NCBI GenBank assembly: GCA_000091205.1
Contig: AP006499.2
From: Cyanidioschyzon merolae
Lineage: Eukaryota
Length of the DNA: 64,000 nucleotides
Reading direction: 5' to 3' (one strand)
A program made the translations under genes and the position numbers. The notes under the pieces were generated by a model that saw nothing but the letters and a program-made list of their open reading frames with translations, searched no databases and was not told the origin of the DNA. Shown here piece after piece: positions 3,001 to 49,954 of the stretch; position 1 is the stretch's first letter, and every line of letters begins with the position of its first letter.

Positions 3001-4855
3001 GCATGAGTCGCGCCTCGCGGAGATGCAGCGACTGAGCCGCGAGAGCAGCGACGCTGCCACTCGATTAGCTGCGCTCGAGGAGTGCCTTCGAGCGCCCCAA
3101 CTGGAAGGTTTTCCACCGACTGAACTCGAGGAATTGCGCACCCTGTTTATTCTCTCTCGCCGTTTCGTAGAACGCGTGCGTGTCTTGCACTTTATCCGCG
3201 TCGTCGCTGCACCACTGCTACAAAACCCGGAACTCTGTTCACATCTGATCGAGAACATACCGCCGCCTCGGTCGGACACACTGCCCTCCTGGTGGCGTGT
3301 CGCTGAGGGCCACGACTTGGCGCTCCTGCGCGGCGTCATTCGCTACGGCTTCGACACCGCCCCGCTAGCACTGGACCCGTCGCTCCCGTTTCTGCCGATA
3401 TGCTCGGATTTGGCGCAGCGAGCGAGCACCGCTGAACGTGCCCCCGAAGACGGTGACCTCAGCACCGCAGAAACAGAAACACGATCCACAAACAACGAAA
3501 ACGACATCGTTGCTATGTTTGCCAAACACCGCGGTGTCTTTCTGCGTGCACGCATCGCCGCTGAGGTGCTCGTTTACGGACGTATCGAGCGCGTGCATGC
3601 AAGCGCATCGTCGGGATCCGTGAAGCCCGATGCCCTGCCCCCGCAGGTGCCACCGCTGCCGATGGACACGTCATCGATGATCACGCATGCAGCGGGCACG
3701 CTTGGCAGCTTACGTGTCTATGCGACGGCCTCGGGGGAGCCGATCTCCAGCGAGGGTGGCGATGATTTCGAGCCTGTTCCCCTGGAGCTCGTTACCGTGG
3801 ATATGTTGCAGACATTCAAGCAGTTGAAGAAGCGAGCATCTGGGGTCGTCGATGTATCGAGTTTACCAGAACAAGTAGTGAGCCTTGGTCGCTTGCTCCA
3901 GAGACAAATGATCCGCGAAGAGACCATGTCAGGGAGCACGGGGCTTGAGCACCGATCTTCTGCTCCTGCTGCTGCTGCTGCTGCTGCTGCGTCGCTGGAC
4001 ATGGTGACAGCGTCGGCTGGATCGAGTGGGAAAAACGCCTCGTTGGTGCCGAGCCTCGCCACGGCAACTGCGGAGCGTTGCGGGCATACCGGTGACACGG
4101 AGACGAATCCCGTGCCTGTGGCGACGGGTCAGCGTGCGGTTGTGCCTGCAGCGGCGGCAGCGGGATCGACAGGTCACGGATCGGCGAGTCAGCCGCAGGT
4201 ACGCAGGTCGCAGCTGCACAAAGTCGCTCGCGATGAACACGGGAACGTTCGGTTGCCGATCCAGATCGGGGTGGTCCTACGGATCGAATCCCTCGGGCAC
4301 ATTGATCCACGAGAGAGTTTCCATAACGAGCGAGCGATCTACCCAGTCGGGTATCGATCGGTGCGCACGTACACGAGTTGCGTCGATGTGAATCGCTCAA
4401 CACAGTATGTATCGGAAATTCTGGATCGAGATGGACATCCGTGGTTCCGGGTCACTTGTGCGGACATGCCGGAGGAGCCGTTCGAGGACAAGTCGCCGAG
4501 CGGATGTTGGTCTCAGATCATGCGAATCATTCGAGAGCGAACCCCGTTGGATAGACGACGCGTTCATGCCACGGTTAGCGGTCCAGAGTATTTCGGACTG
4601 ACACAGCCGATCGTCGAAGAGCTTTTGCAGTCCCTTCCAGGGGCCGCACAACTCAAGAACTACAATTTTAAGCGGTTTCTTTCTCCGGAAAAGGCGGAAT
4701 CTGAGGAATCGCTCCATCCCCTGGGCGCAGCGACGGATTCACCGGCAGCGGGTACAGCGCAAGAGCAGTTGCGAGCGGTTGAGCGCGCGAAGACCATGGC
4801 AGATCCGGTTCGTATCAGACTCTGCCTAGAGCCGATGGAAACAAACCCCGACTGA
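2..4855 (+). CDS. CHD-family SNF2 chromatin-remodelling ATPase (5' end cut by window edge); helicase ATP-binding and helicase-C domains, SANT/SLIDE-like region, poly-Ala tract, C-terminal FYRN/FYRC-like module
   Basis: The reading frame stays open back to nt 2; the upstream translation (..GPFLVVAPLSTLGHW) is SNF2 motif I/Ia, so the N-terminus, including any chromodomains, lies outside the window. DEAH box VVDEAHRLKN, LLTGTPLQNN and helicase-C QAQARCHRIGQ are present. WNKSERHRFHRAMLTYGYGEWERI is SANT-like. The C-terminal FHNERAIYPVGYRSVRTY...DGHPWF...SPSGCWSQI...EYFGLT...LPG matches the FYRN/FYRC pattern of MLL/trithorax. Confidence 0.85.
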   Translation, partial: SFLDYLYREQHLRGPFLVVAPLSTLGHWKREFETWTHMNAIVFHGNVRARDVILQYEWTYAGMSVRSGLFKWHVLITTYEIILQEANRLRGIPWAVIVVDEAHRLKNRQSKLFDELLGFRSEHRVLLTGTPLQNNSLELFSLLHFLEPAKFPNEKEFQQAYGDIRDAEAVENLKALLRPYLLRRMKEDVEKAIPPKEETLISVELTRIQKQWYRALYEQNFAFLEQGGKRNNVGNLRNIVMELRKCCNHPYLIRGVEEIETQSLAALGEDALMRHLVEASGKLVLVDKLLPVLREKGHRVLIFSQMIRVLDILEDYLHWRGYKFERLDGRVRGNDRQQSIDRFQKDPENFVFLLCTRAGGQGINLTVADTVIIFDSDWNPQNDVQAQARCHRIGQERDVKVYRLITRGTYEEEMFDRASKKLGLDQAVLQNMGVDQGGSGNMLSTMGRDDINRLLRRGAYDVFNEDDSAADAFTAENIENIMARRTKTIKTGGAGDVGPSAFSKATFTADADGMFGDETWLNDKEFWKKLMPLAASAPNPDIIYEPRRRRQVQRFQPGENSDEESGEHESDSDEADLSEDKLGPDGRKLWNKSERHRFHRAMLTYGYGEWERIAQAMARAQKSANQRSVFEVQRAARSWLRLLAEHTAAALVAGDAADATQQERLAQERLVKLCNEKRVLQAAFEPWIDENTQQPVDESFTEPVFTEDSYLDAMERNGYNWIERLECIEDIKDLVRNGDVDGEIPSITASGIYVMPDWWDAEFDRALILGTHRHGYGQYDDMRRDPDLHFFGRLAPLPQPEPGNGNAAEDGDARLAEWTALDQSYREKAASLGLDAEQLRAREMPTLHILNTRLKKLLKAFQRLRRRQDRRRSQLEQAEERARAREEQQLARRRQREAFERERSARFEVQAQRWSKREKHDFGRLLGRLGGVVYDADGRIDWSVYKERCQLSRKFDYNLERMYIEMLAMARESFRRTGDDALAKALDEPIEYALQWRASQHESRLAEMQRLSRESSDAATRLAALEECLRAPQLEGFPPTELEELRTLFILSRRFVERVRVLHFIRVVAAPLLQNPELCSHLIENIPPPRSDTLPSWWRVAEGHDLALLRGVIRYGFDTAPLALDPSLPFLPICSDLAQRASTAERAPEDGDLSTAETETRSTNNENDIVAMFAKHRGVFLRARIAAEVLVYGRIERVHASASSGSVKPDALPPQVPPLPMDTSSMITHAAGTLGSLRVYATASGEPISSEGGDDFEPVPLELVTVDMLQTFKQLKKRASGVVDVSSLPEQVVSLGRLLQRQMIREETMSGSTGLEHRSSAPAAAAAAAASLDMVTASAGSSGKNASLVPSLATATAERCGHTGDTETNPVPVATGQRAVVPAAAAAGSTGHGSASQPQVRRSQLHKVARDEHGNVRLPIQIGVVLRIESLGHIDPRESFHNERAIYPVGYRSVRTYTSCVDVNRSTQYVSEILDRDGHPWFRVTCADMPEEPFEDKSPSGCWSQIMRIIRERTPLDRRRVHATVSGPEYFGLTQPIVEELLQSLPGAAQLKNYNFKRFLSPEKAESEESLHPLGAATDSPAAGTAQEQLRAVERAKTMADPVRIRLCLEPMETNPD
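3962..3990 (+). repeat. (GCT)n trinucleotide microsatellite inside the CHD CDS, encoding a poly-Ala run (APAAAAAAAAS)
   Basis: Direct read: gctcctgctgctgctgctgctgctgctgcg. Confidence 0.9.
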
Positions 4856-6154
4856 TGGATGGAGATGAGCGGTTTAGAAGCATCGGATCGCAGAGGATAT
4901 GGTCCGGAATCAGGATTTTGGTTGAGGCTTTGAGCACTGCGCTGCACGAGTACGGTGTTGCGACAAAGCGTGCACCCTCGTGCATAGCGAGCATTCATGA
5001 ATCTCAGGTTGCGGCCGTGTGCATCGCCAGCGTCTTTCGCTCCAGACGCAGACAGGTGGAGCACCACCAGCACCACCGCTACCGCTGCGTGAATCACCAG
5101 CACCGGCACCAGCAGTGCCTGTCATCATGATCGTGAACGAGTTGCAAACCGTGCGGCAATCATGCAGCATGGATACCCATGCGGACAACGCTTTGTTCTG
5201 CGCATGATCGCTCCAAAGTTGCTTTTTATGATGGCGCCCCAGTCGACAAACACAGAAACGCGCACGGCCCAGGTTGTCCATGTCATGCGCAAATCACCCT
5301 GCAAATGGTCTGCGCTTACCTCTTCGTCAGGTCCACGTTCCACGAAACCTTAAACGCTTGCTTTTACGCGCAAGGCATGAGAAACATCAAAATCCGGTTC
5401 GATGGGACGCTTCGGGATCAGGGCAGCATCCAAAGCGTCAACAGCGCCAGTTTCGATCCGATGGAAAGCGTGTTTCCCGAGGAACTTTCACCTGAAGACA
5501 GCCTGTATGAAGCAAAGCGCAAGAAAGGCCGCCAAGTGTTATATTTTCCGGTACAACGATTGAATTTTGCGACGCTATCCTGACTGGTGCTAGTCGTCCG
5601 CTGACCGAGTATTTACGCCATGAACTCCCAAACGATCACGTATGTCTTGAACGCTCACAACGTTGCAGTGGGTTGCAAACTACTGGGAGCCGCCCTGGAA
5701 GCACGCGCCTTTCGTAGACGTCCCGCAGGTCGTTAGAGGTACACAGGAACCGCACGCGGTTGGTGCTGTCCAGCCTGACGGCAAAGAACCCCGGATACCT
5801 GCGGTATTCGTGCGTGATGGGCAACAACGCCACCGTTTCAGGTAAACATGCTCACTCCGGCTGCTCTGCGTGACAGCAGACAGACTCGAAAGAACAGCTC
5901 ACTGCACTGCGGCATCTGACGCCTTACCGGCGCTCGCGGTAACGCGGAGTTTGACAAGTTCGACATAGTGGCGTACTAGAGCATTCAGGCCACAGTCCGC
6001 TTGATTGGAAACTCAACCTTTCCAAGCAAGCGGGACGTTCAACCACCGTATACGAACGAAAAGCGTTTCGAGCCCCAGGTCTGTGGCAGCACGTTGCGGT
6101 TGGTGCAGGTCGGCGTGACCGTCGCCCGTGCCGTCGGAACGCAAAACAGGTGGA

Positions 6155-6193
6155 GCTGCTGCTGCTGCTGCTGCTGCTGCCGCTACTGCTGCC
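6155..6193. repeat. (GCT)n microsatellite, intergenic
   Basis: Direct read: gctgctgctgctgctgctgctgccgctactgctgccg. Confidence 0.9.
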
Positions 6194-6544
6194 GTTGTCA
6201 GTTCGAAGATGGTGTACGGCACGGCGTGCCGGTGAACGATATAGCCGAGAATTTCCGGGCCTGGCTTCGCTCCCAGAAGCAGGGTGCGAATGCGAAACGT
6301 GGAAGTGTTTCCAGGAGATACTGCGAGATGCTGGCGCTTATGGAGAGATAGAAACAGGGGCTTTCCGGGTCAAAGGGAGCAATCGTTCCGTTTTTGTGCA
6401 TATGGACATGAAGTACGTGCAGGAATACTATTTTCGGAGAGGCTTTTATGACCTGAATAGCAAGGTTTTAAGGGTGGCTGGTCGCTTTTCTTCTGGAAAC
6501 CGCTGCCATGATTCATGGAGACCAAGGGATACCCGACGCTTGAG

Positions 6545-7925
6545 TCGACACCCATGAAGAACGACAATGTCATGGGTGCGCTCCGCGAGCTCGTACGCAC
6601 ACGCTCAAGTTCTGGTCTCTTGCGAATGCGATCAAGTCTCTGGGGTTTATCTCAGCGACTGCTTCCTGTTCCTGCCGCGTACTTCCGGCTTCACAGGCAC
6701 CGTTCTCTTCTGTCGCTCCAGATTCGGTGTCAGCAGTCGAAGGGTGTTGACGGCAGTGTGCGAGTCCCAACTGTTTCTCGGCCTCGGGCTGGTGTCAACG
6801 AATGCAATGCGCACTCGCGGTCGCTGCGATCTACGCATCACTTGCCATGTTCGTCTTCTTATTGTGCAGCCTCAGTGCACGTCCTTCGCAGCAGTAACGC
6901 TTGACTCTGGGCAGGTGTTTCCGTACCGTCCATCGCACCGTTTTCTCCGAGTCCTGCCTTCTGGGTCACCAGCGCTAGTCGCATCGCTCGCTACAAGCGC
7001 TGGACGGGTCCAGGCGGTTACCTCTGATACCAACCTGCATTGGCGCGCCCGCCGCTGCACCCTACGCTCATGAGCTTCACCTAGAGTGACCAGCTCGGCG
7101 AATTCGCTTGCTTCTGCGTACGAAAGCGAATGCATACGCTGTTGCGTTCGGTCAAGGACTGTGGAGCGCGATGTTGTCCATGATGAAACAAGCACCGCAA
7201 GGAATACCCTGCGGGCGAAACGAGTCTACGAATTCTGATCCGTCCACGCGCCTTTCGTGCAACGCGTCGACACCAGCTCGACTGGAAGCGCTCGCTACGA
7301 TGACTCGAGTCCGAGTCCGGGTCCGAGTCCGAGACCCCTCAACAGGTAAACGGAAGCGTCGGGCACCCCCGGGGTCGTATCCCGTGAGCGATACCGTGCT
7401 GCTGTGGAGTCTCGTTGCGTCGATAGCCACGGAGGAAGGATGATTTGTCTTCCAAGCGGAACTCAATATTGGACATGACATCGTCTGCGGGCCGTCGGCA
7501 GGAGCTTGTGATCAAGCCGTCATGGCGTATCGTAGAGTGTTTTGCATCGTTCCTCTGGCGTTGCGGACTGCTGCGCCCACGAGTTGCCATGAAGCAGCTG
7601 AATCGTGAGCTTGAAGCACGCGTGACTGGAGCGTGCGTCTCGTCATGCGAGGTGAAGAGCCGAGGCATGCTCGTTTGAACCGGATAAAGAAATCTGTTAT
7701 TTTGCATACGCTAATTCGAGGAGGTCGCGACTCATCTTGATTCTGGTGTCGCAGCGAATGCAACCGGTTGAGCGTCGACGGAGCCGCACCGGAACGTTCA
7801 CCGAGAATCCTGAAACTACTGGTGAATCTGGAAACCCCTATTGGGTGAATCTGAGTGTCGAGGTTGCAAATCTGGAAAACGGTTGGAAAAAATCGAAAGG
7901 CAGGAGCAGTCGACTAGTGCAGTAT
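6545..7925. repeat. Left arm of a large inverted repeat (~1.38 kb), reverse-complement of 11615-13004
   Basis: Identical ORF translations appear on opposite strands (6567..7073+ equals 12475..12981-; 7339..7707- equals 11828..12196+; 7737..8066+ matches 11613..11798-). Spot-checked nucleotide stretches are identical apart from a few SNPs and a hexamer-repeat length difference. Both outer ends fall at a GTCGAC. Confidence 0.9.
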
Positions 7926-9963
7926 TCTATTTTCGTTGGGCACTGGTTGAGACAGCAGCTGCAAGTTGCGAAAGAATGCGCGGTGCCAGACATCTTGGAA
8001 TGTAGTGAAATCCTCAACAGTAATTGCGGAAGAAGCGCTCTATTGCTTGGATATACACGTGAGTGACGGCCTTGCCGCTCGGGTTCAGGTCGTAGGTCAA
8101 CGGTTGCATACAGTCTCTACAGTGAAGCATTAGAGCAACTTCGCGAAGAGCATTGACGGTGTATGGTTCAGTTTTTTTTTGCGTACAGAGAGGAAATGGA
8201 ATAAAGTTGACAGATATGATATAGCCCGACGCAATATCAATCTGCACGTACTTCGTAACTACGAATTGCGAGTCGAGCAACAAGGCTCGTTTTCAACTGT
8301 TCAACATAGGTGAAGAGCAATGGTTCATTGTGGGTGTGGAAACGGGCTTGAAGAGTATCATGCCCGTTGTTTTGCCTCTGAGTCACGGATACGGGGCCAA
8401 AGGCTTACACTGAACAAGACGAGGTTGCCCAGCTTTGCAGGGCTCTGTACTTTCGAGAGTCGTACATGACACACGGTACGCGACGTACCAACAGGTAACA
8501 GGATACTGTTAGAATAATCTCGATGCTCTGAGCACTGCACCCGGCAGACGAGATGCTTTGTGCGCTTCATTCGAAGGTTGCATCAGCGTCCGAGAATCCT
8601 GATGCAGGCGAACATTGGCAGGATTGCATGAAACCACGCTGGGGGCGCCAACGGTTTCGGTTGTACGGTGGCGAGGACGGTGCATACGTCAACTTCATCA
8701 ATGCGCTGGAGAAGGCGAAGACCGATACGTCGCATCGTTTGGCGGTTGAATTCTGTGGCACTGGACGTGCTGTAGAGCACACACGCTGCACTCCTGCACC
8801 ATCGAAGAGAGTGGACTGCTGGCGGAGGAAGCGATTCGTCACGTTTCCCATCGATTAGTTCAGGACAATATACATGCATCACAAGCACAGGCGTGCGCTC
8901 AGACTGGTCCAGAAGAAGATAGTGAAACAGAGCCGGATACACAAGGTGATGTGCGGTAAGCTAGCCGAACGTCAGATAGCGAGATAATCGAAGTTGTGAG
9001 GTTTGCTGTGGTTTGTTTCCGACCGCATCCATGTGCGCGGAAGCGCCTTCCGCACCGAGCCTTGAACGCCTCGTTCAACAAGCGGAAATATCCTGTACTT
9101 TCGGATCGTCCAGCGCTGCTCTGTCGAGCGAATATTCGAGTGAACCGTTTAGAACTCAGTGTGAGCATTGTGCTCAAACGCTGACGACTTCCAATGAAAA
9201 ACATAGCAAACGCCAAGAGGGAGGGCATCGCATTCCTGCCTCGAACAAGGCACTGGGATGGTACGGGAACGCGATCCGGCATGGCTTCAGTGCCTTACGT
9301 ATACATAGGGAGAGAGTTTCTCGGGCTTTTGTTCGACGATACTGGTATTCTATTATCCGACGTTACTGGGCAAGTCCAAATTCAAAATGCAACATTTCAT
9401 GGCAACGCTACAGCACGTGCCAGCGTCAGATCAACAGCGAATCGCCTCGGCAACGGAGACCAACCCCTGGGTAGTTGTATCATAAGCGCAAACGCTCCTC
9501 GCTAACGTACAGTGCCGAGAGCAGGTACTAGGATTCACCCATTGTGGTAGATCATCTCCCTTGGACTCCAAATTCGCGATACCGGAACCCATTGCATACG
9601 TACGTGCAGAAAAAGCAGATGATTTCCCTAGCACCAGGACATTTTTTCATGATTCATATATTCCAATATGCGACCTTTCTGCGGCACAGCGGAAAGTAGC
9701 TCAAGTTTCTCGCTCTTGTGAGAACGCAGTAAAGCTGATCGGTATGTAATGCGATTTTTTGCAATCCTGTAAATCGACCAAGAACTTGGGGTTGTCTTCC
9801 ATCGCAACGGTTGGCACCCTGTGCGAGAAACGATGCCGCCGCCTCCGTCGACGTCACTGGAATGCAACCTCGGGTCTTCAAACGTGCGTTTCGGGTCGCC
9901 AAACGCGAAGCCGTGTTCACAAAGACTACCAAGGCACTCGAACATCAGTGCAGCATCCGCGAA

Positions 9964-11310: not shown

Positions 11311-11614
11311 GAACCGTTCATCACTCGGGTAAGTGTAGTGACTGCCCCCAGGCGGTGCTCAACGTGCCCGACTCGACTCGCACACTAGACAAGTTTTGCA
11401 CCCGCGGCGCGCTGCAGACAGCGGGCTTGTGTACTCGGCACACTGCGGATACCCGAGTGGAAAAGGAAGATGCTCGACAGAACACTCCTATCAGAGAGCG
11501 ATTGGGTTGTAGGATTGCTTTGTCGGTGTAGCGGTCGACGAGGAAGATAATGCAAATAGGTACGGATATGCCACTGCGCGATGCTACACTAGTGTCAGAT
11601 CAACATGGAATACT

Positions 11615-13004
11615 ACACTAGTCGACTGCTCCTGCCTTTCGATTTTTTCCAACCGTTTTCCAGATTTGCAACCTCGACGTTCAGATTCAACCAATAGGGG
11701 TTTCCAGATTCACCAGTAGTTTCAGGATTCTCGGTGAACGTTCCGGTGCGGCTCCGTCGACGCTCAACCGGTTGCATTCGCTGCGACACCAGAATCAAGA
11801 TGAGTCGCGACCTCCTCGAATTAGCGTATGCAAAATAACAGATTTCTTTATCCGGTTCAAACGAGCATGCCTCGGCTCTTCACCTCGCATGACGAGACGC
11901 ACGCTCCAGTCACGCGTGCTTCAAGCTCACGATTCAGCTGCTTCATGGCAACTCGTGGGCGCAGCAGTCCGCAACGCCAGAGGAACGATGCAAAACACTC
12001 TACGATACGCCATGACGGCTTGATCACAAGCTCCTGCCGACGGCCCGCAGACGATGTCATGTCCAATATTGAGTTCCGCTTGGAAGACAAATCATCCTTC
12101 CTCCGTGGCTATCGACGCAACGAGACTCCACAGCAGCACGGTTTCGCTCACGGGATACGACCCCGGGGGTGCCCGACGCTTCCGTTTACCTGTTGAGGGG
12201 TCTCGGACTCGGTCTCGGTCTCGGACTCGGTCTCGGACTCGAGTCATCGTAGCGAGCGCTTCCAGTCGAGCTGGTGTCGACGCGTTGCACGAAAGGCGCG
12301 TGGACGGATCAGAATTCGTAGACTCGTTTCGCCCGCAGGGTATTCCTTGCGGTGCTTGTTTCATCATGGACAACATCGCGCTCCACAAGTCCTTGACCGA
12401 ACGCAACAGCGTATGCATTCGCTTTCGTACGCAGAAGCAAGCGAATTCGCCGAGCTGGTCACTCTAGGTGAAGCTCATGAGCGTAGGGTGCAGCGGCGGG
12501 CGCGCCAATGCAGGTTGGTATCAGAGGTCACCGCCTGGACCCGTCCAGCGCTTGTAGCGAGCGATGCGACTAGCGCTGGTGACCCAGAAGGCAGGACTCG
12601 GAGAAAACGGTGCGATGGACGGTACGGAAACACCTGCCCAGAGTCAAGCGTTACTGCTGCGAAGGACGTGCACTGAGGCTGCACAATAAGAAGACGAACA
12701 TGGCAAGTGATGCGTAGATCGCAGCGACCGCGAGTGCGCATTGCATTCGTTGACACCAGCCCGAGGCCGAGAAACAGTTGGGACTCGCACACTGCCGTCA
12801 ACACCCTTCGACTGCTGACACCGAATCTGGAGCGACAGAAGAGAACGGTGCCTGTGAAGCCGGAAGTACGCGGCAGGAACAGGAAGCAGTCGCTGAGATA
12901 AACCCCAGAGACTTGATCGCATTCGCAAGAGACCAGAACTTGAGCGTGTGCGTACGAGCTCGCGGAGCGCACCCATGACATTGTCGTTCTTCATGGGTGT
13001 CGAC
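11615..13004. repeat. Right arm of the large inverted repeat (~1.39 kb), reverse-complement of 6545-7925
   Basis: As for the left arm. This arm carries an expanded (gactcg/gtctcg)n hexamer microsatellite, ctcggactcggtctcggtctcggactcggtctcggactcgag, where the left arm has a shorter version. Confidence 0.9.
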
Positions 13005-14617: not shown

Positions 14618-15389
14618 CAAGATTCGACGTCGATGCGGGGTCGCGCCTTATGCCGTCGGCGTTTGGGAGCGATAACCATTCCGATTCCTCGGAAGAAGTT
14701 CTGAAATCACGGAGTCAAGCAGGCAAGTGCCGGTGTCTCAGATGCAGGTCCAGCAATACTGCAACCGATACGAGTGTGCCCAGGGATTCGATGCCCGATG
14801 GGAGTCAGCAACGCTGCGCTCTGTGTGTGAAGCCTTCCGCCTCGTGCGACATCGGGCGGGCACATTCTGGTATTTCGCTGGATACCAGGGATACGATTCA
14901 TCTTGTACTCGCCTTTGCCGATGAGGCTCAACCCGGAGGTTCCACCACGAGTCGTTTTTCGATAAAGCACGGAGCCTGCGAAAGCAACACATAACCAGTG
15001 AGGCAGGGAACATCACTGGTGGTGCCGCGTACGCGGTTGGTGACTGTGTCACTGTCGCTTCTCTGCCTATGTCGTTTTCTGACAGAGATTATCCGTCCCC
15101 TGTTTCGTATCTCACCAGGTTTTTCATTAGCAAAATCGCTTGGAGCTTCCAGCAGAGTCGGTAGTACTGATCAAATTCCATGGTGGAGTGCTCTGGCTCT
15201 GATACGTGGAAGCGTCGATGACAGCCGGCTGGTAGGCAGTAGATGCTGCAAACGTTCTGATCCGGTGTAAGGAAACGTAGATGCTCACATTCAGGCACGA
15301 AGCATAAATTGTAAAACCAGATGATCTGATATATACGGCCAGAAAAGACAAAAAAACATTTCACGACCACGGAGGGTATGTATATGTAC

Positions 15390-16815
15390 CCAGGCGCAGG
15401 CGCCTGCCAGTCTTTTTTGGCCGTCCGCCTGCTATCGGGTTCAGCTTCACCCTGTACACGTCGAGCCGGAGAGGCTGCCTTATAAACTTGGATCGCGTCA
15501 GCTCCGCGGATCTCGTCTTCAGCACCGCTCATCGTCTGATATTAACAGCAGCGTTGTGATCCCGGTTCACGAACTTGTTGCATGCAGTGCTGGTAGTGGG
15601 GAACACCAATGCAGGGATTGCCGGAACTTGCGCCCTCCGTGGTAATACATTCTCGACATCGTCCCGTCGAGCGAGTACCTTTTCTCGTGTATCTCCACTG
15701 TTCTTCTTCATCACTTGCTCTTCTTCGCATGGTGGTCTTAGAGAAGAGTATTTTTTCGTTTTTTTTTCGCTGCAGGCGACGATAATCGCCCTCCAGGATT
15801 CTCGACTTCCATGTCCATAACTTTCCCGTAGATTTTTTATTTCTTCATATGAACGCACTTCTTGATGCTCTTAGACAAGGGCCATCGCGGAGTGAGAAGG
15901 ACCTGCGCAAGAAAGAAGAATTGTGCCCGTGGGCTAAACGTACGGAGAACGCTTCGGCAATTCGCCCAGTGGAGCGATCATGACGTTCCACCCTGGAAAG
16001 TACTCCTTTGATGGTGCTTAACCACCGAGCGTACGTAGGAATGAGAAGCAGCTCTATCCCGGTAGAACTGGCATAAAGATCGAATGCAAATGAATGGTGA
16101 AATGCCACGTTGTCGAACAGAAGAATGTCGGCGGAGCTGCAAGGGAAAAGTCTTCAATGATTCAACAAATTGGGTGCTTTTGTTGCAAGAGCCTTCTCAA
16201 CGAGCGAAACCGTGGCCGGCAAATGAATCCTCTGCAACTAGAAGCTGAAATGATGATATGATCTTTCTCTTGCATGTCTTTTCTAATTACAACGAGCGCC
16301 CTGCTCGGCGAATACCCATATACGCTCCGACCGTTTCGTCTGAAGGACTTTTCAACGATTGAAAAAAACAAACCGATGTCTCTGTGATGCATACCGACCG
16401 CAGCGTTCCAGGAACGCTATCGTTGCGTGAACTAGGACGCTCGTTTTGGCGACTGTATTCCAGGGCTTTCAACGCGACACGAACAAGCTGTTGAGAAACA
16501 GCGACACCCGCGATGGCTACGATCGTCGCTTTTGCTTTTCATACGGCAATCAACGAGTCGCTCTCTACCATGGACTGCAAGAACGCTTCGACAATACCAG
16601 TTTTTGGCGCGGAACGCATCTACTTGTTTCTTTCACTGTTCCTCAACCATCTGAGTACAGTTGGATGACTGAACTGAATGAGGAATACAGTCCTCCTTGT
16701 ACTGTTCAGTACATAATATATATCCTACAGACGATTCGTCTACGATCTAACCAGTACATTGCGTCGTGATTTCAGTGCCCCGCTTACTGAACGCGGCATC
16801 GAGCGTGGAACGAAT
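15390..16815 (-). mobile_element. Copy A of a degenerate TnpB/Fanzor-like (IS605 OrfB-type RNA-guided nuclease) element; coding sense on the minus strand, disrupted by frameshifts and stops
   Basis: The minus-strand ORF ends ...CNKFVNRDHNAAVNIRR*, which is the RuvC-III D-x-D-x-NAA-x-NI signature. An adjacent frame gives a Cys-rich CRECITTEGASSGNPCIGVPHYQHC zinc-finger remnant. The region is about 75% identical at the nucleotide level to 24495-25865 across its whole length. Confidence 0.6.
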
Positions 16816-16993
16816 CCTAGTTGAAGGACTTTGAGGAAACCTCAATGCTCGTGTGCCCGCGGGCCGCCGAGCGACACGACCGGGATGCGCGCACGCGCCT
16901 GCGCCACCGGGGCATCGTGCAACGTCCCCCGGAGGCCTGACGGGGTGAAAGCGCCTCACTGGCGAATCGGAGCGCTGTAGTGCGGCTTAGGCT

Positions 16994-22130: not shown

Positions 22131-24251
22131 ATGGCGCAAAACACTGGACAAGAGACTTATGAGTTCCAGGCGGAGATCAATCAGCTCATGTCGCTGATTG
22201 TCAACGCGCTGTACTCGAGTCGCGACGTGGCGCTGCGAGAGCTGATTAGCAACGCCTCTGATGCGCTGGATAAACTTCGTTACTTATCTCTGTCGGACAA
22301 GTCAGTCTTGGATGCCGATGAGAAGATGGAAATCTACATCAAAGCAGATAAAGAGGCGAAGACACTGGAGGTGCGCGACACTGGTATCGGGATGACCAAG
22401 TCAGACCTCGTGACAAACCTCGGCACGATTGCCAAGTCTGGCACGAAGAGCTTCATCGAGGCGCTCCAGGCCGGAGCGGACGTTTCGCTCATCGGGCAGT
22501 TCGGTGTCGGGTTCTTGTCCGCTTTCCTTATCGCAGATGTCGTGGAAGTGCGCACCAAGCATAATGATGATGCGGGCTACATCTGGGAGTCCTCAGCCGG
22601 TGGTACGTTCACTATTCGACCGGATCCTGAACCGCTCAAGCGAGGAACTGCCGTGATTTTGCACTTGAAGGATGATCAGTTGGAGTACCTGGAAGAGCGT
22701 CGTATTAAGGAAATCGTCAACCGACATTCTTCCTTCATTCAGTATCCTATTTTCTTGTACAAGGAGGTGGAGAAGGAGGTGGATGCGGATGAAGACGACG
22801 AGAAAATGGAGGATGTTGACAAAGCTAAGGAAGAGGGTGATGTCGAAGAGATCAAAGAGGAAGAGGAGAAGAAGGACAAGAAGAAGAAAAAGAAGGTGAA
22901 GACGGTCGAGTGGGTGCAGCTGAACAAGACCAAAGCGATCTGGATGCGGCGTCCAGAGGAGGTTTCTCGAGAAGACTACAACGCATTCTACAAGGCGATT
23001 ACCAACGACTGGGAGGACCCGCTCGCAATCAAGCACTTCTCCGTGGAGGGCCAAGTCGAGTTTACAGCGTTGCTGTTCTGCCCACGCCGAGCACCCTTCG
23101 ATTTATTCGAGCCTCGAAAGAAGCTCAACAATATTAAGCTGTACGTTCGGCGCGTCTTTATCATGGATAACTGCGAGGATCTCATCCCAGAGTACCTGAA
23201 CTTTGTCAAGGGCGTCGTCGACTCCGAAGACCTGCCGCTCAATATTTCCCGCGAAATGCTCCAGCAGAACAAGATCTTGAAGGTCATGAAGAAGAATATC
23301 GTGAAGAAATGCCTTGAAATGTTCAGTGACCTCGCGGAAAACAAGGAAGATTTTAAGACTTTCTATGAGCAGTTCAGCAAGAACATCAAGCTTGGTATCC
23401 ATGAGGACACTGCGAACCGCTCGAAACTAGCAGAGCTGTTGCGGTTCTACTCGACCAAGTCTCCGGACGAGTACACTTCGTTGAAAGAATACGTATCTCG
23501 CATGAAGGAGGGCCAGAAAGCCATCTACTACATCACAGGTGAAAGCAAGAAGGCGGTTGAGAACTCGCCTTTCCTGGAGAAGCTGAAGAGGCGCGGTTAC
23601 GAGGTCTTGTTCATGACAGAGCCTATCGACGAGTACTGTGTACAGGCCCTGCGAGAATACGACGGTAAGAAGCTTGTCTGCGCCACGAAGGAAGGTCTCC
23701 AGCTCGAGGAAGACGAGGAAGAAAAGAAGCGGCGTGAAGAGGAGGCTGCGCGCTTCGCGAATCTGCTCAAAGTGATGAAGGATATTCTAGGAGACCGTGT
23801 CGAGAAGGTCATTCTCAGTGAACGGCTCGCAGACTCGCCATGCATTTTGGTAACGAGTGAGTTCGGTTGGTCCGCCAACATGGAGCGTATCATGAAGGCG
23901 CAAGCGCTTCGAGATAGCACCATGTCCATGTACATGAGCGCCAAGAAGATCATGGAAGTGAACCCGAGCAACCCCATCATTCGTGAGCTGCGAGACCGAG
24001 TCGAAGCGGATCCCTCGGACAAGACAGTCAAGGACCTAGTCAATTTGCTATACGACACAGCGCTACTCGCGAGTGGTTTCTCCCTCGATGAGCCGAATAC
24101 ATTCTCGAGCCGCATCCACCGCATGATCAAGCTAGGTCTCAGCATCGACGAAGACGAGGAAGAGGAAACACCAGGTGTCACCATGGAGAATGGTGCAGTC
24201 GAGTCAGGCACTGGCGATGCCGTCGAGAGTGCCATGGAGGAAGTCGACTGA
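22131..24251 (+). CDS. HSP90: Cytosolic heat-shock protein 90
   Basis: N-terminal ATPase motifs [21 protein letters not shown] and IGQFGVGF; charged linker KKDKKKKKK; middle and C-terminal domains collinear with Hsp90; C-terminal MEEVD TPR-acceptor motif. Confidence 0.95.
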
Positions 24252-24315: not shown

Positions 24316-24343
24316 GCTGCTGCTGCTGCTGCTGCTGCTGCTA
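24316..24343. repeat. (GCT)n microsatellite 65 bp downstream of the HSP90 stop
   Basis: Direct read: gctgctgctgctgctgctgctgctgcta. Confidence 0.9.
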
Positions 24344-24494
24344 GTGGCGAGTTCGAGCATTGGCACTGGGAAAAGCAAACACGCTTGGTCAGCGACTGCA
24401 TGAGCGCAACTGAGAACGTGGTTTTTCCAGTTTAACGTCGTCGAAATGGCACACACGCACACGGTCAGTAAAACGAAAACGTTTCACAACCATG

Positions 24495-25865
24495 GAAAGG
24501 AAAAATATCTACCCACGCGCGGACGCCTCCCAGACCTTTTTTGACAGGCCGACTTGTATCGGTTTGAGCTTCTCCTCGTAAACCTCTTGCCTAAGCGACT
24601 GCTCCATAAAATGAGGTTGCGTCAGCTCGGCGAGTCCCGTCTTGAGCACCGCACATCGTCTGATATTGATGGCGGCATTGAAGTCTCGATTCACGAACTC
24701 CATGTATATACTGACACTGGTGGAACTCACCAGCGCAAGGATTGCTCAAAGTCGTGCGCGCTGGGCCCTTTGGTGCTCTGTCAGCTCTCCGTGATTTTCT
24801 AGCTCCAAAGCGCTCCGCTGCATTTTCTCCATCTTGACATTTTCGAGTGTACACCAAAGATCGTACTTTTATTTTTTTTTAAATGAACGCACTTCTTTAT
24901 GGCCTTCGGTAAGGGCTCTCCCGGGGGAGGAAGCTTTTGCGGAAGCAAGACGTCATGTGCCCCGGTGAGTCACCGTATGCTGGACGCCTCAGCGATTCGC
25001 CCAGTAGAGCAATTATAACGTTTCACGATAGAAAACACTCCTTCAGTGAGGTTGAACTACGGCGAGTACGGAGGACCGAAAAGCAGCTCTGCCCGGATAG
25101 CATTGGTAAAGCTCGAACGCAAACGGAATGATGAAATGCGACGTTGTCCAGTTGAAGGATGTCGGCAGACGCCACGGGAAGAGTCATCAATGATTCAACA
25201 AAGTGGGTGCTTTTCTTGTATGAGCCGTCTCTACGAGCGAAACTGAGGTCGTAAAATGAAACCACGGCACCTAGAAGCTGCGATGATATCGTTCTCGTTC
25301 TCTTCGAGTTCGATTGTAGATAGAACGGGCTCCATTCAACTCAAGTACCCGTGTGCGCCTCAACCGTTTCGTGTGAAGCAATTCTAGTCGTCTGAAACAA
25401 ACCAAATTTCCTCTGCTTCATACCGATTGCGACGCTCCAGGGAACTGTTTTTGCGATTTCGGTGGATAATGCCCATGCGTGAACTAGGACTCTGTTTCTG
25501 CGACGGTATCCCAGTGCATTCAGGACCAAACGAACAAGATGTTGAGAAACAGAGACGCCAGTGGTGGCTAGTATCATCGCTTTTGCTTCCCGGAAGATGA
25601 TTCACGGGTCGTTTTGAACCACTGACCGCAAACAGTCTCTGATGGTACCAATTTTTGGTGCGGTGCGCATCTGCTTGTTTCTTTCAGTGTTCCTCAACCA
25701 TCTGAGTACTGTGGTATGATCGAGCAAAAGAAGGAATGCAGTGCTCCTAGCACTGATTCGTAAAGAATACATCCTAGAGACAAGTCGTCTCCGAGCTATA
25801 CAATACATTGCATCGCGATTTCCATTTCCTAATATACACCGCATCGAGGCTGGAGCAAATCTGAG
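24495..25865 (-). mobile_element. Copy B of the degenerate TnpB/Fanzor-like element, minus-sense
   Basis: Minus ORF 24509..24730 reads ...YMEFVNRDFNAAINIRRCAVLKTGLAEL...KKVWEASARG*. An adjacent frame gives the Cys/His-rich LSNPCAGEFHQCQYIHG. It is collinear with copy A over ~1.4 kb; shared blocks include cgtcagctc..gtcttcagcaccgc.catcgtctgatatt and ttgtttctttca.tgttcctcaaccatctgagtac. Confidence 0.6.
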
Positions 25866-27728
25866 CTGAAAGCCCAGAGGGGCTCTGCGCGAACCTGCCG
25901 CTTGCCCATTGGATCCGTTCGTTCCCGCGGCGGTGCTCAGCGCTCCTGCGCCGCATGGTATTCGGCATGCTGGCGCCTGACACACTAAGTGCGACGTGGC
26001 TGTTGGGGAGTCGACGCCACTCTCAGCGCAGGGCCTTGAACAAGCACCAGGTCGTAGAGAGTCTGCCCGCCTTGAAGCAGTGCGCCACAGACTCATTATT
26101 TCAGATCCAAATGGGACACTGGACTGAGCGCTCTGCTCTTGTCTTTCCATTTATTTTCCGAACTTTGTTTGAAGAAGTACAGCATCAACATTCGAGCTGC
26201 AGCGATCAGGGCTTTCGGACTCGTACGTGCGTTTCGGATCCTCAGTCGTGGCCTCGGAGTGGCTCATTCGACGCTTTGGCGCTGGTATTCGATACGTGAC
26301 CCGAATTAGGACGATTCGCGACGCCCGCGACCATGGGTTCCTAACATCATCCAAGTCATTATTTAATTCATACGTAGAAGCCTCCACGCGTCCCCGTTCC
26401 TTATGAATATCATGGACATAGCACGCATTCTTCAAGATTTTGTTTCTTCTGTTTCAAGGCAACGCTTGGGCAGAACGCTTCGCGCCGCTGAATGGACGAG
26501 ACGAAAACGCTCAACGTCGTCACTTGAGGGCCTGGTTCAAGAGTTCATCCTTAAAGTCCGCAGAGCTTTGGGCGGTCAAATAATCGATTCCGTTCGAAAC
26601 GCAGATCCCTCTCTCATTGTGATCATCGACGAAACGTGATGGCATACCAGCTAGAAACCTTTCACGGAACAAACTCCCGGAAACGCCCAGCGCTTCCGTT
26701 TCCATGTTAAAGGGTTTCGGACTCGGACCTGAGTCATCGCAGGGATCGCGTCTAGACGAGAATGCATCAGTGCGATGAACGTAAGGAACGTAAACAGACC
26801 GAAATGTTTAGACTCGTTCTCCAGCCTGGTTCCTCCTCACTGTACTTGTTTCAGCATGCGTGACATCGCGTTCCCGCACATGCTCCGAAGAATGGTACAG
26901 CGCGCACATGCGCAGCGCACAGCGTATTCACGGAAGGAATCGTCTAGAGGAAGCTAGTGATCGTAAGGTACTGCTACGCACGCGGAAACAGAGGAGGAGG
27001 CGGAGCGCATCCGGGCGAGCCTGCATGCACCATGGGGCGGCGCTCGTAGGCGACATTGTGGTGGCATATCGGGGCATTTGAAGACACGCTCTTGTGACCG
27101 CTGCGAAGCGCGCACCGCGACTATATGCAGCGAAGATGAATATGGCAAGCGAAGCGTAGATCACAACTGTTGCCTACACACGACATGCATAACCACAACG
27201 ACCGGAAACTGTGAAATCGGGACTTGCACCTCGCCATCAACATCCTTCGGCTGCTGATAACGGAGCTAGAGGAAACAGAGAGAGACCGGTACTTTTAAAA
27301 CCGGATATGAAACGAGGGAAATGGGATGCATTCGCCGACCAGACCCACAAAGGCGGAAACTCATGGCCAAGGGAAAGACACCCAACCTTTTGAGTCTGCC
27401 CCCGATTCGGCTGCGTGTACCCGTTCGATACGATGTTCACATGGTTGTTGCAGTGCAAGCACCTTGTCCAGCAAGTCCAGCCTTCAAGCTCACGCTCCGT
27501 TTTCTCGTGTAAAAGAGGCACGCTTGTTCATACGTGTCGAGGATGAAACCCGCTGGAACGTTGTACCACGGTACCAAGAGCAGCACCAACAACACGAACA
27601 ACAACAAGCCAGTTCATGCGCTCAGCGAATGCTATGGAACCTTTGCCGAACGCGAGGCGCGCTGTGCTGCTGAACGCGATTACAGCAACGATTATCATTG
27701 CTGTGGCTGTCATCAACGCTTCCGCACT

Positions 27729-41495: not shown

Positions 41496-41616
41496 GGCAC
41501 AGGCGATGCAGTCGAACTATGCCACGGACTCGTTCCGCCGGACGTGGCGCGAGGCGCTCAGTCGCCTTTCGCACGGCTGGATTCATTGACATTCGGGGAC
41601 GCACTGAACAACTAAA

Positions 41617-42200
41617 GACTAAATGGCCGTAGGATCGCTTTTTATTAGGACCCGTACAGAGCCCAAGGGACGCATTCGCCTGATCGCCGGTGGAAATACA
41701 GACTGAATGGTCGTAGGATCGCTTTTTATTAGGACCCGTACAGAGCCCAAGGGACGCATTCGCCTGATCGCCAGTGGAAATACAGACTGAATGGTCGTAG
41801 GATCGCTTTTTATTAGGACCCGTACAGAGCCCAAGGGACGCATTCGCCTGATCGCCAGTGGAAATGCAGACTGAATGGCCGTAGAATCGCTTTTTATTAG
41901 GACCCGTACAGAGCCCAAGGGACGCATTCGCCTGATCGCCAGTGGAAATACAGACTGAATGGCCGTAGAATCGCTTTTTATTAGGACCCGTACAGAGCCC
42001 AAGGGACGCATTCGCCTGATCGCCAGTGGAAATACAGACTGAATGGTCGTAGGATCGCTTTTTATTAGGACCCGTACAGAGCCCAAGGGACGCATTCGCC
42101 TGATCGCCAGTGGAAATACAGACTGAATGGTCGTAGGATCGCTTTTTATTAGGACCCGTACAGAGCCCAAGGGACGCATTCGCCTGATCGCCAGTGGAAA
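41617..42200. repeat. Tandem minisatellite, 84-bp unit x ~7
   Basis: The unit gactgaatggtcgtaggatcgctttttattaggacccgtacagagcccaagggacgcattcgcctgatcgccagtggaaataca recurs at 41701, 41785, 41869, 41953, 42037 and 42121. Because 84 is 28 codons, minus-strand ORFs run through it with STGDQANASLGLCTGPNKKRSYDHSVCI repeats. Confidence 0.9.
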
Positions 42201-43053
42201 GCAACTTGTATCGCCGCGTTGTTCGAGCCCCGAATGCAGGCTCGATACTCGTTTCCCTGACGACTGCAGAGGATTTGTGCGTGCAAGATGCGCACGTGCC
42301 GTGCATCCGAAACATGGACGCATCTGGTAAGCGTGCCTCTGTCAAAGCACATGAAAAGCTCGGCGATGACTGCGTGATCAGGTATGTATCAGATACGGGA
42401 TACGTCTGCGTTTCCTGCTGCTTCCACGACAAATGCTCGTATGTGCGACAGACGTACGGCCTACCGGATGGAGGGAAGCGCTTGTGCGAGCCTTTCCCCG
42501 TTGGTAAAGTTAGATACATCACGCTGGATCGCGGGTCATCGAAGAATACCATCCAATGCATACGTATGCTTGTCGAGTTGCAACAGATCTGATTTGGAGA
42601 TCCATCCATGCACGCGATGATCCTCACACATGTGCGTGCGTCGATTCTTTGATCCATCCATGCACGCATCTCTCCATCGATCAAACCATGCGTGCACTCA
42701 TTGTCACAAGCATGCACGCATCGCTCCATCGATTTCTCTATTCACGAATGAACGCCTCATCAAGAATTTCTTATAGTGCACGATCAGTGTAGAAATCCGA
42801 TTTACAGGGCGTGTAGTTGCTTCCACCACCCATTGAAAAGGCTTTCTTCTTCTACATCTGTATCTCCGTTTACCTAGCCAGAGACCAGTTTCCCAGTGGC
42901 GCGCTGTGAGGGCGCCATATGCGAGCGTCGTATAGCGCACGCCAGAATGCCAGCAGGCATACCGGCTGGTGCTCGGCGACGCCCCGCCGATGAATCCGCG
43001 GCTGCGTGCACGATCGCCATCCGATCCCCACATGACGTCGATCGACGCGATGG

Positions 43054-47100: not shown

Positions 47101-48989
47101 GAGGCGCTTTTGCCCTGCACGCGGCGTGCTCGGCACGCACTTGATCGCCGAGCTGATTCAAGCTCCATGCTCAACTGGAGCACATGTCCATGGTTGATGA
47201 AGCGTCCAAGCGTCTATATAGAGGCTCAAGTCGACCGACTGGTCACCGCTGGCAGCTGCATATTCTGAGGAATGCTGCTATGTTCAACTACTTTACGCTA
47301 TGCAATGCTGCAGATTCTCTTGATAAGTATAGCCCCTATTCTTTGAGTAAATTCTGGCTCGGCGTTGTTTTCCCATGAAGCGTTCTATCAAGGAATGGAG
47401 GCGCCCGCCTGACTAGCGTCGGTGCATATACATGCATGGTGTCTGGTTCACTTCATGCAACCTTTACGGGAGCTTTTGCGGAAGAGCAAGTGTGCGCGCC
47501 GAGCTCGCTGCGCGATGACTCTGGTGGAGAAATGATTTGTATGCGCTCACGGCAGGCTCGGCACACGAAGTATCACACGAACTGACGATTATCTCTAAAG
47601 CAAGCTCTGAATAGTCTTAGCTGACGGCATCTGTAGGTCTGGCGCGGACTGATGGCTGCGCCTCTTGACGCACATAACAATCGCGTCCTGAGGGATCCTT
47701 ATCCAGACTATATCCGTGTCAGATTAAAACGGAACACTAAATTGTGCGCTCTGCTCTTGCCTTTCATGCTTTCCGAACTTTTCTAGATCTACATCCTCGA
47801 CATTTCATGAGCAGCAATACGGGCATTCAGATTCACTGGTGATTGCGAGATTCTCAAGTGTCTCTTTGGAGAAGCTCCATGGACACGTTGCCGCTGGGTT
47901 TCTTTACCAAAACGGAATCAAGACTACACGCGACGAGCTCGAACAAAGCTTCGTAAAATAGGTGGTATCCATATCCAAGTCATGCGTGGAAGCCTCCACT
48001 CTTCCTGTTTACTCCCGTTTGGTACGCTTAAATAACGCGTTCTGCACGTTTTCCACCTCTGTGTCATGCCAAGTCGTTGGCGCAGCCAATGCGCGCCGCT
48101 GGATCGACGAAGAAGAAAACTCTAAGTTGGCCCATGACGAGTTGCGCTCAACGCCAAGCCCATATTTCACTAAACTTGTCTCACGAATTCGTCGATTCCT
48201 CTCCATAGACAAATCCTCCTCTCGTTGTTAACGACGAGAAGCCAGCATTCGACAGCAGCATGGTACCTCTGACCGTAAACGCTCTCAGATGTTTCCGTCC
48301 CTTCTGTTTGTATGGAAAACGGTAATGGGCTCGGACGTTGTTCATCGGAGCGGTCGTTTTCCGCGGAGAGTGCGTCACCGCTTCGCAGGGAAGGAACGTG
48401 GAACCATGGAAATTTCTCATCTTGTTCTCCAGTTTGGATTTTCTTTCTCGGACTTTTTTCATGATCGACAAGTTCACCGTCCATAGATCCACTGTCGAAT
48501 AGAACAGCATTCGCTTGTGCGTGCAGCGGACGAAGGACTCGCCGAGGGCATCGCCCAGAAGAGGCCTGTGAATATGAGGTACGGCACTTGGCATGGAACC
48601 AGAGGAAGGCAACGACACGAGCTTTCAGTACCCCTCAAGCGCATCTACCGCTTGATGAAAGAAGCATTCTCACGCGTCAGGACGGCCCTTAAAGAACAAA
48701 GTATGGTGGACGTATGAGAACGTCAGTAAACAGCCAAGTGCCGCCCTTTCCAGGGCACACCAGGATGTTTACAACGGAGATAAAAGTTGGCAAGCGAAAC
48801 GTTGATTACAACCACCGCCTGTGCATAAAGTGCAATGAAACCATCCGACAGTAGGGAAATCGGTACTTGAACACTGCCGTCAACTTCCTGCGACGACGAC
48901 TGACACCGGACCTTGAGGGAACGGAGAGATCGGCGGCTTCCAAGCCCTGGATACAACAGCGGAAAAGAGTGTATTCGAGTCAAAAGCTC

Positions 48990-49750
48990 CCAAAGGGTGA
49001 CAACGATGATCTTACACAGAGACTATAACTTAAGAGTATACAAATCCGAGATAGATACCCTGTTCCCTTTCTTTCGGACTCGTTGTCGAGAATCCGTCGA
49101 AGGGGTGACAACGGTGATCTTACACAGAGACCATAACTTAAGAGTATATAAATCCGAGATAGATACCCTGTTCCCTTTCTTTCGGACTCGTTGTCGAGGA
49201 TCCGTCGAAGGGGTGACAACGGTGATCTTACACAGAGACCATAACTTAAGAGTGTACAAATCCGAGATAGATACCCTGTTCCCTTTCTTTCGGACTCGTT
49301 GTCGAGAATCCGTCGAAGGGGTGACAACGGTGATCTTACACAGAGACCATAACTTAAGAGTATATAAATCCGAGATAGATGCCCTGTTCCCTTTCTTTCG
49401 GACTCGTTGTCGAGGATCCGTCGAAGGGGTGACAACGGTGATCTTACACAGAGACCATAACTTAAGAGTATATAAATCCGAGATAGATGCCCTGTTCCCT
49501 TTCTTTCGGACTCGTTGTCGAGGATCCGTCGAAGGGGTGACAACGGTGATCTTACACAGAGACCATAACTTAAGAGTATACAAATCCGAGATAGATACCC
49601 TGTTCCCTTTCTTTCGGACTCGTTATCGAGAATCCGTCGAAGGGGTGACAACGGTGATCTTACACAGAGACTATAACTTAAGAGTATATAAATCCGAGAT
49701 AGATACCCTGTTCCCTTTCTTTCGGACTCGTTGTCGAGAATCCGTCGCTC
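48990..49750. repeat. Tandem minisatellite, 108-bp unit x 7
   Basis: The unit gtgacaacggtgatcttacacagagaccataacttaagagtatataaatccgagatagataccctgttccctttctttcggactcgttgtcgagaatccgtcgaagggg starts at 48997, 49105, 49213, 49321, 49429, 49537 and 49645. Because 108 is 36 codons, open frames run through on both strands (VTTVILHRDHNLRVYKSEIDTLFPFFRTRCRESVEG). Confidence 0.9.
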
Positions 49751-49954
49751 AAACAATCGTCCACGACGCATTTGAATTCCCGGGCCGCCCTGTCCAATCT
49801 GCCGCGTCAGGCACAGCGGAGGCGCTGGCGCGTTCACGGCGGCGCTCTACGAACCTCTAGCTCTACCAACAAGTCATTGGACGAGAGCGTCGTTACGAGA
49901 ATATCGGAGCACCGTCGCTCTTGGACGACAACCAGGAGGCAAGGGTGAGCAGAA

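Follow-up and report, generated by a model that had tools for sequence, protein, structure and literature searches.

We analysed 64,000 nucleotides of one strand of Cyanidioschyzon merolae DNA (contig AP006499.2, assembly GCA_000091205.1; hereafter the window), in which a sequence-only reading had flagged positions 24495-24660 as a conserved extension past the NIRR motif of TnpB-like copies and as a candidate omega-RNA scaffold or right end. The flagged stretch is very probably the 3' part of a dead fragment of Fanzor1, the eukaryotic TnpB, lying inside an old composite transposon. On sequence reading the interval makes sense on the minus strand: it comprises ~48 final codons, a stop codon and the initial 3'-end bases of a decayed Fanzor1 fragment, the second (B) of three related copies A, B and C. 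In the anatomy that we propose, the minus strand would encode the protein tail past the RuvC-III motif at 24655-24512 and a stop codon at 24511-24509, and the next ~50 nt, to ~24460, would form a short 3' end. Copies A, B and C would be old members (~70% identical) of a ~1.4-kb composite unit made of a DDE_3-type pseudo-transposase, the last ~115 Fanzor codons and this 3' end. Common descent from one element, with a tail formerly subject to purifying selection at the protein level, explains why they can be aligned past NIRR; since then, their tails would have decayed as fast as the remainder of the element. The reading of the 150-bp extension as an omega-RNA scaffold is not supported.

As it stands, the finding is of little consequence, the stretch being a relic of a known family and its conserved extension a known C-terminus. 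It brings three modest additions: a null result for RNA structure in the tail, a candidate covarying 3' module, and a composite element joining a DDE_3-like pseudo-transposase to a Fanzor stub. As a model alga that is tractable and has almost no introns, C. merolae could lend itself to studies of what Fanzors naturally do, provided that there are active copies.

The Fanzor family of the window copies was already published in 2013. CMe-1A, a Fanzor1 family of C. merolae, has ~150 copies, ~80% identical to a 3169-bp consensus and some of them intact; it has no terminal inverted repeats (TIRs) and no determinable target-site duplications (TSDs), and encodes a one-exon Fanzor1 of 734 aa (Bao & Jurka 2013, PMC3627910). 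The published consensus protein ends ...NAAINIRRCAVLEKRPPELTRENFVGQPLKVELYEKKLEAVVGGRSKKTGRRLHVSWRRFV and the published DNA consensus ends ...TAGGGCGCGTTTGCCGCCACTACTGTACACCGCTGGCGGCAGCGTTTTTCTTTTGAAAGGCG (PMC3627910 supplement). By BLASTP, the copy B translation matched the last 112 residues of the CMe-1 consensus with 54% identity (E 1e-38), tail included. With this match and the shared RuvC-III motif, the TnpB-like call proved right, and since the tail lies within the published 734-aa protein, the "extension past NIRR" is the known protein C-terminus. The window copies come from the same organism as CMe-1A and share its RuvC-III motif and C-terminal tail, but they form a diverged, older subfamily with the last ~115 codons only, which follow a DDE_3-like pseudo-transposase within a fused ~1.4-kb unit; they lack the 21 nt that encode SWRRFV* and have a different, degenerate 3' end.

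The resemblance among the three copies is real and far beyond chance. Using the copy B peptide, tblastn found copy A at 15409-15597 (minus strand, E 1.4e-17) and copy C at 60920-61066 (plus strand, E 5.4e-9); at the DNA level, B 24476-24699 was 73.7% identical to A 15353-15575 (224 bp, across the tail) and B 24634-24763 was 76.2% identical to copy C (130 bp). The nucleotide blocks quoted in the sequence-only reading are present, on the minus strand. Copy A stops right after NIRR, B reads to 24509-24511, and C is open for only ~27 codons past NIRR, where the frame is lost by a frameshift. Two corrections apply to that reading: A and B lie on the minus strand, and the window has two further Fanzor remnants (8207-9032 and 63515-64000). 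The RuvC-III motif reads NRDFNAAINI in B, NRDHNAAVNI in A and NRYFNAAIGI in C (D -> Y in C). The copy B stub lacks RuvC-I, RuvC-II and anything upstream of them, and a complete catalytic core with WED/REC in one open reading frame (ORF) is absent from A-C. The family hidden Markov model (HMM) covered only positions 318-432 of 443 in copy B and 318-439 of 443 in A-C together, and tblastn with P0121 gave a concordant result for the B stub; A-C are therefore fragments.

The ORF of copy B might also be viewed as a gene in its own right, B alone among A, B and C having an open frame through the tail, and near-identical sequence occurring in several metagenome populations. That a host function has preserved this 73-codon ORF (24509-24730) as a domesticated gene for a small protein is nevertheless extremely unlikely: the frame begins at a GTG right after an in-frame stop inside the Fanzor homology, has neither RuvC-I nor RuvC-II, is broken in copies A and C and ends differently in other strains (P0006), and the metagenome calls are prokaryote-style ORF calls, which are no evidence of expression.

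Relatives of the Fanzor1 fragment were frequent in metagenomes, in a handful of JGI projects as judged by contig prefixes. Protein searches returned 175 and 243 related short ORFs, and a DNA scan built on six sequences found 395 related stretches, from which 80 loci were kept; the tail was present, and many of the stretches read back ended at the same stop. A 'main' metagenome subfamily agrees with the published consensus over long stretches, and on the 3' side it matches the end of the published DNA consensus. Longer ORFs and stitched copies share an order typical of Fanzor1, with a basic NLS-like (nuclear localization signal) N-terminus, a REC-like region, VVGADPGNTNIITIA (RuvC-I), VDEFRTS (RuvC-II) and NRDFNAAINI (RuvC-III). 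Between the WED-like region and RuvC-I, we observed one to ~5 acidic repeats of ~20 residues (..ATQEVEDNDFVVDV.KDE..KEA.P..) in P0122, P0123, P0168, P0179 and L065 7513-8727, the last repeat merging into the RuvC-I strand FVVGADPGN. A fully open Fanzor ORF was absent from all metagenome copies fetched (L005-L087), the longest reaching 623 codons (L062), and in-frame stops are frequent among metagenome copies, tail included (e.g., PPE*TR). PF26935.1 is listed in the precomputed annotation of P0137, P0139 and P0220; a Pfam search of P0139 gave no match.

Conservation and folding of the coding tail

The sequence-only reading had proposed that the tail is conserved beyond what a protein would need; the substitution patterns do not support this. 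Tail identity was close to that of the rest of the element (74% vs 71% for A vs B, with 70.8% over the adjoining 1022 bp outside the tail region), and five other copies were similar. Taking subfamily consensuses as proxies for once-active masters, we compared the CMe-1A-type and window-type tails and obtained proportions of synonymous and nonsynonymous differences (pS and pN) of 0.52 and 0.18 (pN/pS 0.34), against a pS of 0.50 and a pN of 0 at the catalytic motif. With equal pS in tail and motif, synonymous sites of the tail were no more restricted than others, and purifying selection acted on the protein. Third-position diversity, measured on 35 CMe-1A-type copies, was 0.22-0.27 in the tail and 0.20-0.31 in upstream coding sequence. 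The ratio of third- to first/second-position diversity was 3.9 for the catalytic motifs but 0.9-1.65 for the tail, indicating a protein segment under weak constraint, plus neutral decay. Differences between A and B at codon positions 1/2/3 numbered 13/10/20.

RNA folding gave no consensus structure in the tail, the result of the RNAalifold check that the same reading had suggested for the aligned 3' ends. For the last 200 nt of 35 copies, RNAalifold returned -0.5 kcal/mol with a structure conservation index (SCI) of 0.01, not above coding controls or column shuffles, and for 17 window-type copies -2.75 kcal/mol with no structure within the tail; this null is partly due to MAFFT alignments that mis-registered the 3'-end hairpins. 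The mean per-copy folding z was +0.04 for the tail segment and -0.97 for the terminal segment (two coding controls, +0.09 and -0.68), and copy B folded no better than its shuffles (z -0.48). In the best single-sequence fold of the consensus coding tail, 84.4% of cells were paired vs 84.2% in shuffles (183/500 shuffles reached the observed value), with 6 both-sided pairs vs 7.4 and a covariation score of 0.119 vs 0.121. Auditing the predicted pairs of the tail, we counted 482 broken, 179 one-sided and 19 compensated cells (680 changed; 71% broken). For the coding tail, i.e., most of the flagged interval, the findings are thus an absence of covariation-supported structure and substitutions consistent with codon-level constraint or neutral decay, the very outcome that had been named in advance as refuting a scaffold.

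These results bear directly on the proposal that the ~150 nt past NIRR double as an omega-RNA scaffold, an overlap with the ORF end as in ISDra2 TnpB explaining the conservation. Such overlaps are known from bacterial TnpB and some Fanzors (17 codons in GtFz1, more in ISDra2 TnpB; PMC10432273, PMC10530073), and with the element ending just ~50-60 nt past the stop, a scaffold longer than ~100 nt must enter the ORF. The consensus of the last 200 nt also folded with a z of -2.7, and a hairpin GGCGTCT...AGACGTT spans the last 11 codons with one-sided changes from G-U to G-C or A-U; an upstream ~97-nt partial copy of the element end, at three homologous loci, begins exactly at this hairpin. We nevertheless judge the proposal improbable, because synonymous divergence of the tail is not reduced, no consensus structure was obtained (tail folding z +0.04, covariation not above shuffles), and 71% of the changed predicted-pair cells are broken, with only 19/680 compensated. 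From the lack of tail structure and covariation, together with the unreduced synonymous divergence, any overlap would be limited to about the last 11 codons, not ~50.

The hairpin module downstream of the stop codon

Covariation was found at the very 3' end of the family. In CMe-1A-type copies, conservation runs 57-60 nt beyond the stop codon and then collapses, at the same point where the published consensus ends. This post-stop stretch holds a small hairpin (GGCGGG / CTCGCC) and a longer terminal hairpin, hereafter H2, with the sequence CGTCGTTCG-ACTTT-CGAACGGCG or its variant CGTTTTTC-TTTT-GAAAGGCG and an outer extension. A covariance model of the two hairpins (R1) found 69 copies within the fetched loci. 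Over 52 distinct rows and 21 pairs, and against 500 shuffles and slid controls, 79.8% of cells were paired vs 76.7% in shuffles, with 14 both-sided-change pairs vs 9.0 and a covariation score of 0.168 vs 0.134 (0/500 shuffles reached any of the three values; slid controls scored 0.05-0.09). One pair was G-C in 16 rows and U-A in 11, and since five of the 21 pairs are most often G-U, the fold is strand-specific. Two hairpins within ~65 nt after the stop codon are thereby a plausible omega-RNA or right-end candidate of the family, by analogy with known systems. We found no description of a covarying two-hairpin module for the CMe-1 family, Rfam and tRNA scans of the window were both empty, and no Rfam family matched.

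The position of the module agrees with what is known of TnpB and Fanzor, whose omega-RNA lies at the element right end (PMC10432273, PMC10530073). As in SpuFz1, GtFz1, ApmFNuc and ISDra2 TnpB, the nuclease gene of CMe-1A sits at the 3' side of the element, and a short conserved non-coding stretch leads from the stop codon to the right end, in CMe-1A with covarying hairpins; as in GtFz1 (17 codons), any overlap of omega-RNA and ORF in the CMe-1 family would be small. In contrast to these characterised OMEGA systems, the candidate scaffold of CMe-1 is short (~65-100 nt) and known from sequence alone, no target-adjacent motif (TAM) or guide is definable, and all window copies are dead. Judged by where it lies and by what is known of TnpB and other Fanzors, the post-stop module could be the core of an omega-RNA scaffold and/or a right-end recognition signal; on the omega-RNA reading, transcripts would run from the module into the flanking DNA, which would supply the guide. 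The terminal hairpin gave no clear signal in a self vs non-self duplex comparison (-10.0 vs -9.2 kcal/mol), for which the anchoring was unreliable.

The same hairpins could instead be DNA-level transposition signals, either subterminal palindromes like those of IS200/IS605 or a Helitron-like 3' hairpin, with the flagged stretch simply an upstream gene; we regard this explanation as possible, if rather doubtful. The literature reports neither TIRs nor determinable TSDs for CMe-1A, our TIR search around copies A and B was negative, and the 3' strand of H2 coincides exactly with the end of the published consensus. Read in direct and not inverted orientation, the first letters of the left end (ATGACAAAACGTTTACATTGACC) are similar to the window-type right end (ATGGTCGCGAAACGTTTTCG..CTGACC), and CGTTTTTC recurs just before left ends and within H2; H2 at the CMe-1A right end has covariation support, and a left-end hairpin was suggested by eye only. 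On the other hand, the elements that were read showed no gene for a Y1/HUH protein, Rep/helicase or serine recombinase (no search of the whole genome was made), and the five of 21 pairs that are mostly G-U would suit RNA better, though one-strand DNA hairpins tolerate G-T. Both roles moreover coincide in known TnpB systems, so that a DNA signal is compatible with an omega-RNA.

Two further observations concern the ends of CMe-1A. The last ~97 nt occur again, oriented alike, ~1055 nt ahead of the Fanzor start codon (L065 1931-2024, L056 1234-1329, L068 1622-1717), each copy beginning exactly at GGAAGCGTCTGC and including both hairpins; as these three loci are copies of one larger repeat, they represent a single event, and the ~97-nt stretch at L034 1699-1803 is the end of an older Fanzor stub. 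A T-rich motif (CGTTTTTC or GATTTTTTCG) always lies just upstream of the CMe-1A left-end start (ATGACAAAACGTTTAC...), as seen at L016 2915-2960, L005 3170-3215, L069 2680-2720, L061 3690-3730 and L022 2090-2130. The motif is also the 5' strand of the right-end hairpin, and it might reflect a preference for a target site or TAM-like sequence or else belong to a hairpin of the left end.

At the window loci, the counterpart of the module is degenerate. Even with filters off, the covariance model built for CMe-1A had no match in the window, its best score (E 0.68) falling on an unrelated position. Copy B has its right end at ~24460, ~35 nt outside the flagged interval, which overlaps the degenerate counterpart by only ~37 nt (24495-24531). 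Inspected by eye, window-type copies have hairpins at the homologous place with different stem sequences. We rejected the candidates GGGTA..TACCC, the palindrome GCGAAACGTTTCGC and a long-range stem that would pair the GGTC-AAAAAG codons with the terminal CTGACC: the window-type 3' segment had folding z values of -0.81 and -0.14 vs -0.93 and -0.74 for coding controls, and hairpins that fold no better than some coding controls are not claimed here. The omega-RNA or right-end proposal therefore holds up in part, in that a covarying module exists at the family's very 3' end, and fails in that no structure was found in the ~150-bp coding extension and the module in the window is degenerate. With this module degenerate and no intact Fanzor ORF, no activity is expected at the window loci.

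Several points weigh against the explanation as a dead Fanzor1 fragment of a family with a covarying 3' module. The window copies are assigned to the family by a C-terminal stub only. Pfam matches of the window copies were all below threshold: PF07282 reached E 0.036 and 0.25 on window translations and relatives, below the cut-off, the former being the RuvC-III stretch of copy A against the end of the Pfam Cas12f1-like TNB model. Six long relatives searched against Pfam gave no match, PDB single-sequence and profile searches returned no Fanzor or TnpB, and an AlphaFold2 model of P0121 from a 20-sequence alignment (mean pLDDT 36.6, pTM 0.22) was too poor for a fold search. The significance of the module is overstated, as the alignment was fitted to the model, the structure was derived from the same sequences and the copies are related by descent. 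Finally, the consensus of the last 200 nt does fold better than shuffles, as given above, and our tests are blind to an omega-RNA that uses upstream sequence lacking conserved helices or pairs such sequence with the protein.

A composite of a DDE_3-like pseudo-transposase and a Fanzor stub

Counted from the NAAINI codon, the homology of copy B to copy A and to five independent metagenome copies (L015, L047, L080, L005 and L020) extends from about -1190 to +204..+220. The order of a DDE_3-like region, ~350-520 nt and a Fanzor stub, all on one strand, is common to at least five independent metagenome loci. Composite copies are ~68-74% identical to one another, with the stub no better conserved than the transposase part. 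By BLASTP, the window transposase frames matched an ORF of L005 (8597-9013) at E 7e-16, the PF13358 DDE_3 match of that ORF being itself weak; a direct Pfam search with the window translations of the transposase region, whose frames are badly decayed, gave no match, and the transposase frame is decayed in every composite copy examined. That the 1 kb upstream of the A and B stubs is the remainder of the Fanzor gene was ruled out, the family HMM and tblastn finding nothing there.

No inverted repeat links the two ends of copy A or of copy B. Across seven aligned copies, the resemblance between the ends is direct and not inverted: the first ~12 nt (..TTTCAACTCGA..) resemble the last ~12 nt (..CTTCACTGACC..) and, by eye, co-vary with them within a copy. 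Past the last motif of copy B that can still be aligned, sequence diversity climbs to 0.63.

The ~1.4-kb family is apparently undescribed. Among known systems it is close to Mariner/Tc1 elements that carry Fanzor1, for example PUl-1 of Pythium ultimum (Bao & Jurka, PMC3627910); as in elements of this type, a DDE transposase and Fanzor sequence stand in one unit in the same orientation, but the window element has a Fanzor stub only, and no TIRs were found. One may speculate, and we consider it very improbable, that the composite family keeps its stub as an omega-RNA or right-end module used in trans by full-length CMe-1 Fanzors, a thought on which bear the stub boundary common to at least seven diverged copies and the covarying module of the sister family. 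If true, the composite would be a eukaryotic counterpart of bacterial omega-RNA-only hitchhiker elements, and would tie a cut-and-paste transposase to RNA-guided homing.

Feature coordinates and other repeats of the window

Coordinates and strands of the features in and around copy B, and of the other Fanzor1 copies and remnants in the window
Feature	Position	Strand	Remarks
Copy B of the ~1.41-kb composite family	24460-25869	-	DDE_3-like pseudo-transposase, A-rich junction, Fanzor1 stub, short 3' end
Decayed Tc1/mariner/IS630-type (DDE_3-like) transposase pseudogene	25026-25724	-	Many stops and frameshifts
Fanzor1 C-terminal stub of copy B	24512-24865	-	118 codons, one internal stop; begins after RuvC-II
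Relic ORF of copy B	24509-24730	-	73 codons, reads ...FVNRDFNAAINIRRCAVLKTGLAELTQPHFMEQSLRQEVYEEKLKPIQVGLSKKVWEASARG*
RuvC-III motif FVNRDFNAAINIRR of copy B	24656-24697	-	Motif stretch identical in the published CMe-1 consensus
NIRR codons of copy B	24656-24667	-	
C-terminal tail coding sequence of copy B (CAVLKTGLAELTQ...KKVWEASARG)	24512-24655	-	Core of the flagged interval
TAG stop codon of the copy B relic ORF	24509-24511	-	
Degenerate counterpart of the family 3' module and right end, copy B	24460-24531	-	From alignment of copy ends
Start GGGAGGCGTCCGC, within the 3'-module counterpart of copy B	24519-24531	-	
Decayed hairpin remnant GGGTA... in the copy B 3' end	24494-24514	-	
Palindrome GAAACGTTTTC in the copy B 3' end	24475-24485	-	
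Last motif still alignable in copy B, ACTGACCGTG	24460-24469	-	
Copy A, same composite element as B	15335-16825	-	Stub has TGA at 15529-15531 right after NIRR
Copy C, 5'-truncated	60653-61176	+	3' limit approximate
Further decayed Fanzor1 remnant	8207-9032	+	RuvC-I-like to post-RuvC-II region; tblastn with P0121, HMM E 6e-31
Further decayed Fanzor1 remnant	63515-64000	-	Runs past the window end; tblastn with P0121 and HMM
HSP90 gene	22131-24251	+	Intron-less; 3' end 210 bp from the flagged interval

The remnant at 8207-9032 is nearer to CMe-1A than copies A-C are. It is enclosed by a near-perfect inverted repeat (6544-7947 / 11588-13004), whose arms lie ~3.6-5.2 kb apart and contain segments of 617, 177 and 642 nt that are 98-100% complementary. 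Next to copy B, the protein encoded by the HSP90 gene is an exact match to C. merolae 10D BAM82113.1, and a (GCT)n microsatellite lies in the HSP90 3' flank, between the gene and the right end of copy B (24320-24345); others are at 3954-3990 and 6153-6190. The window also contains two tandem arrays, at 41526-42284 (period 84 nt) and 48884-49831 (period 108 nt), each of ~7 or more copies with a core 96-98% identical; both periods being multiples of three, the arrays may be coding repeats.

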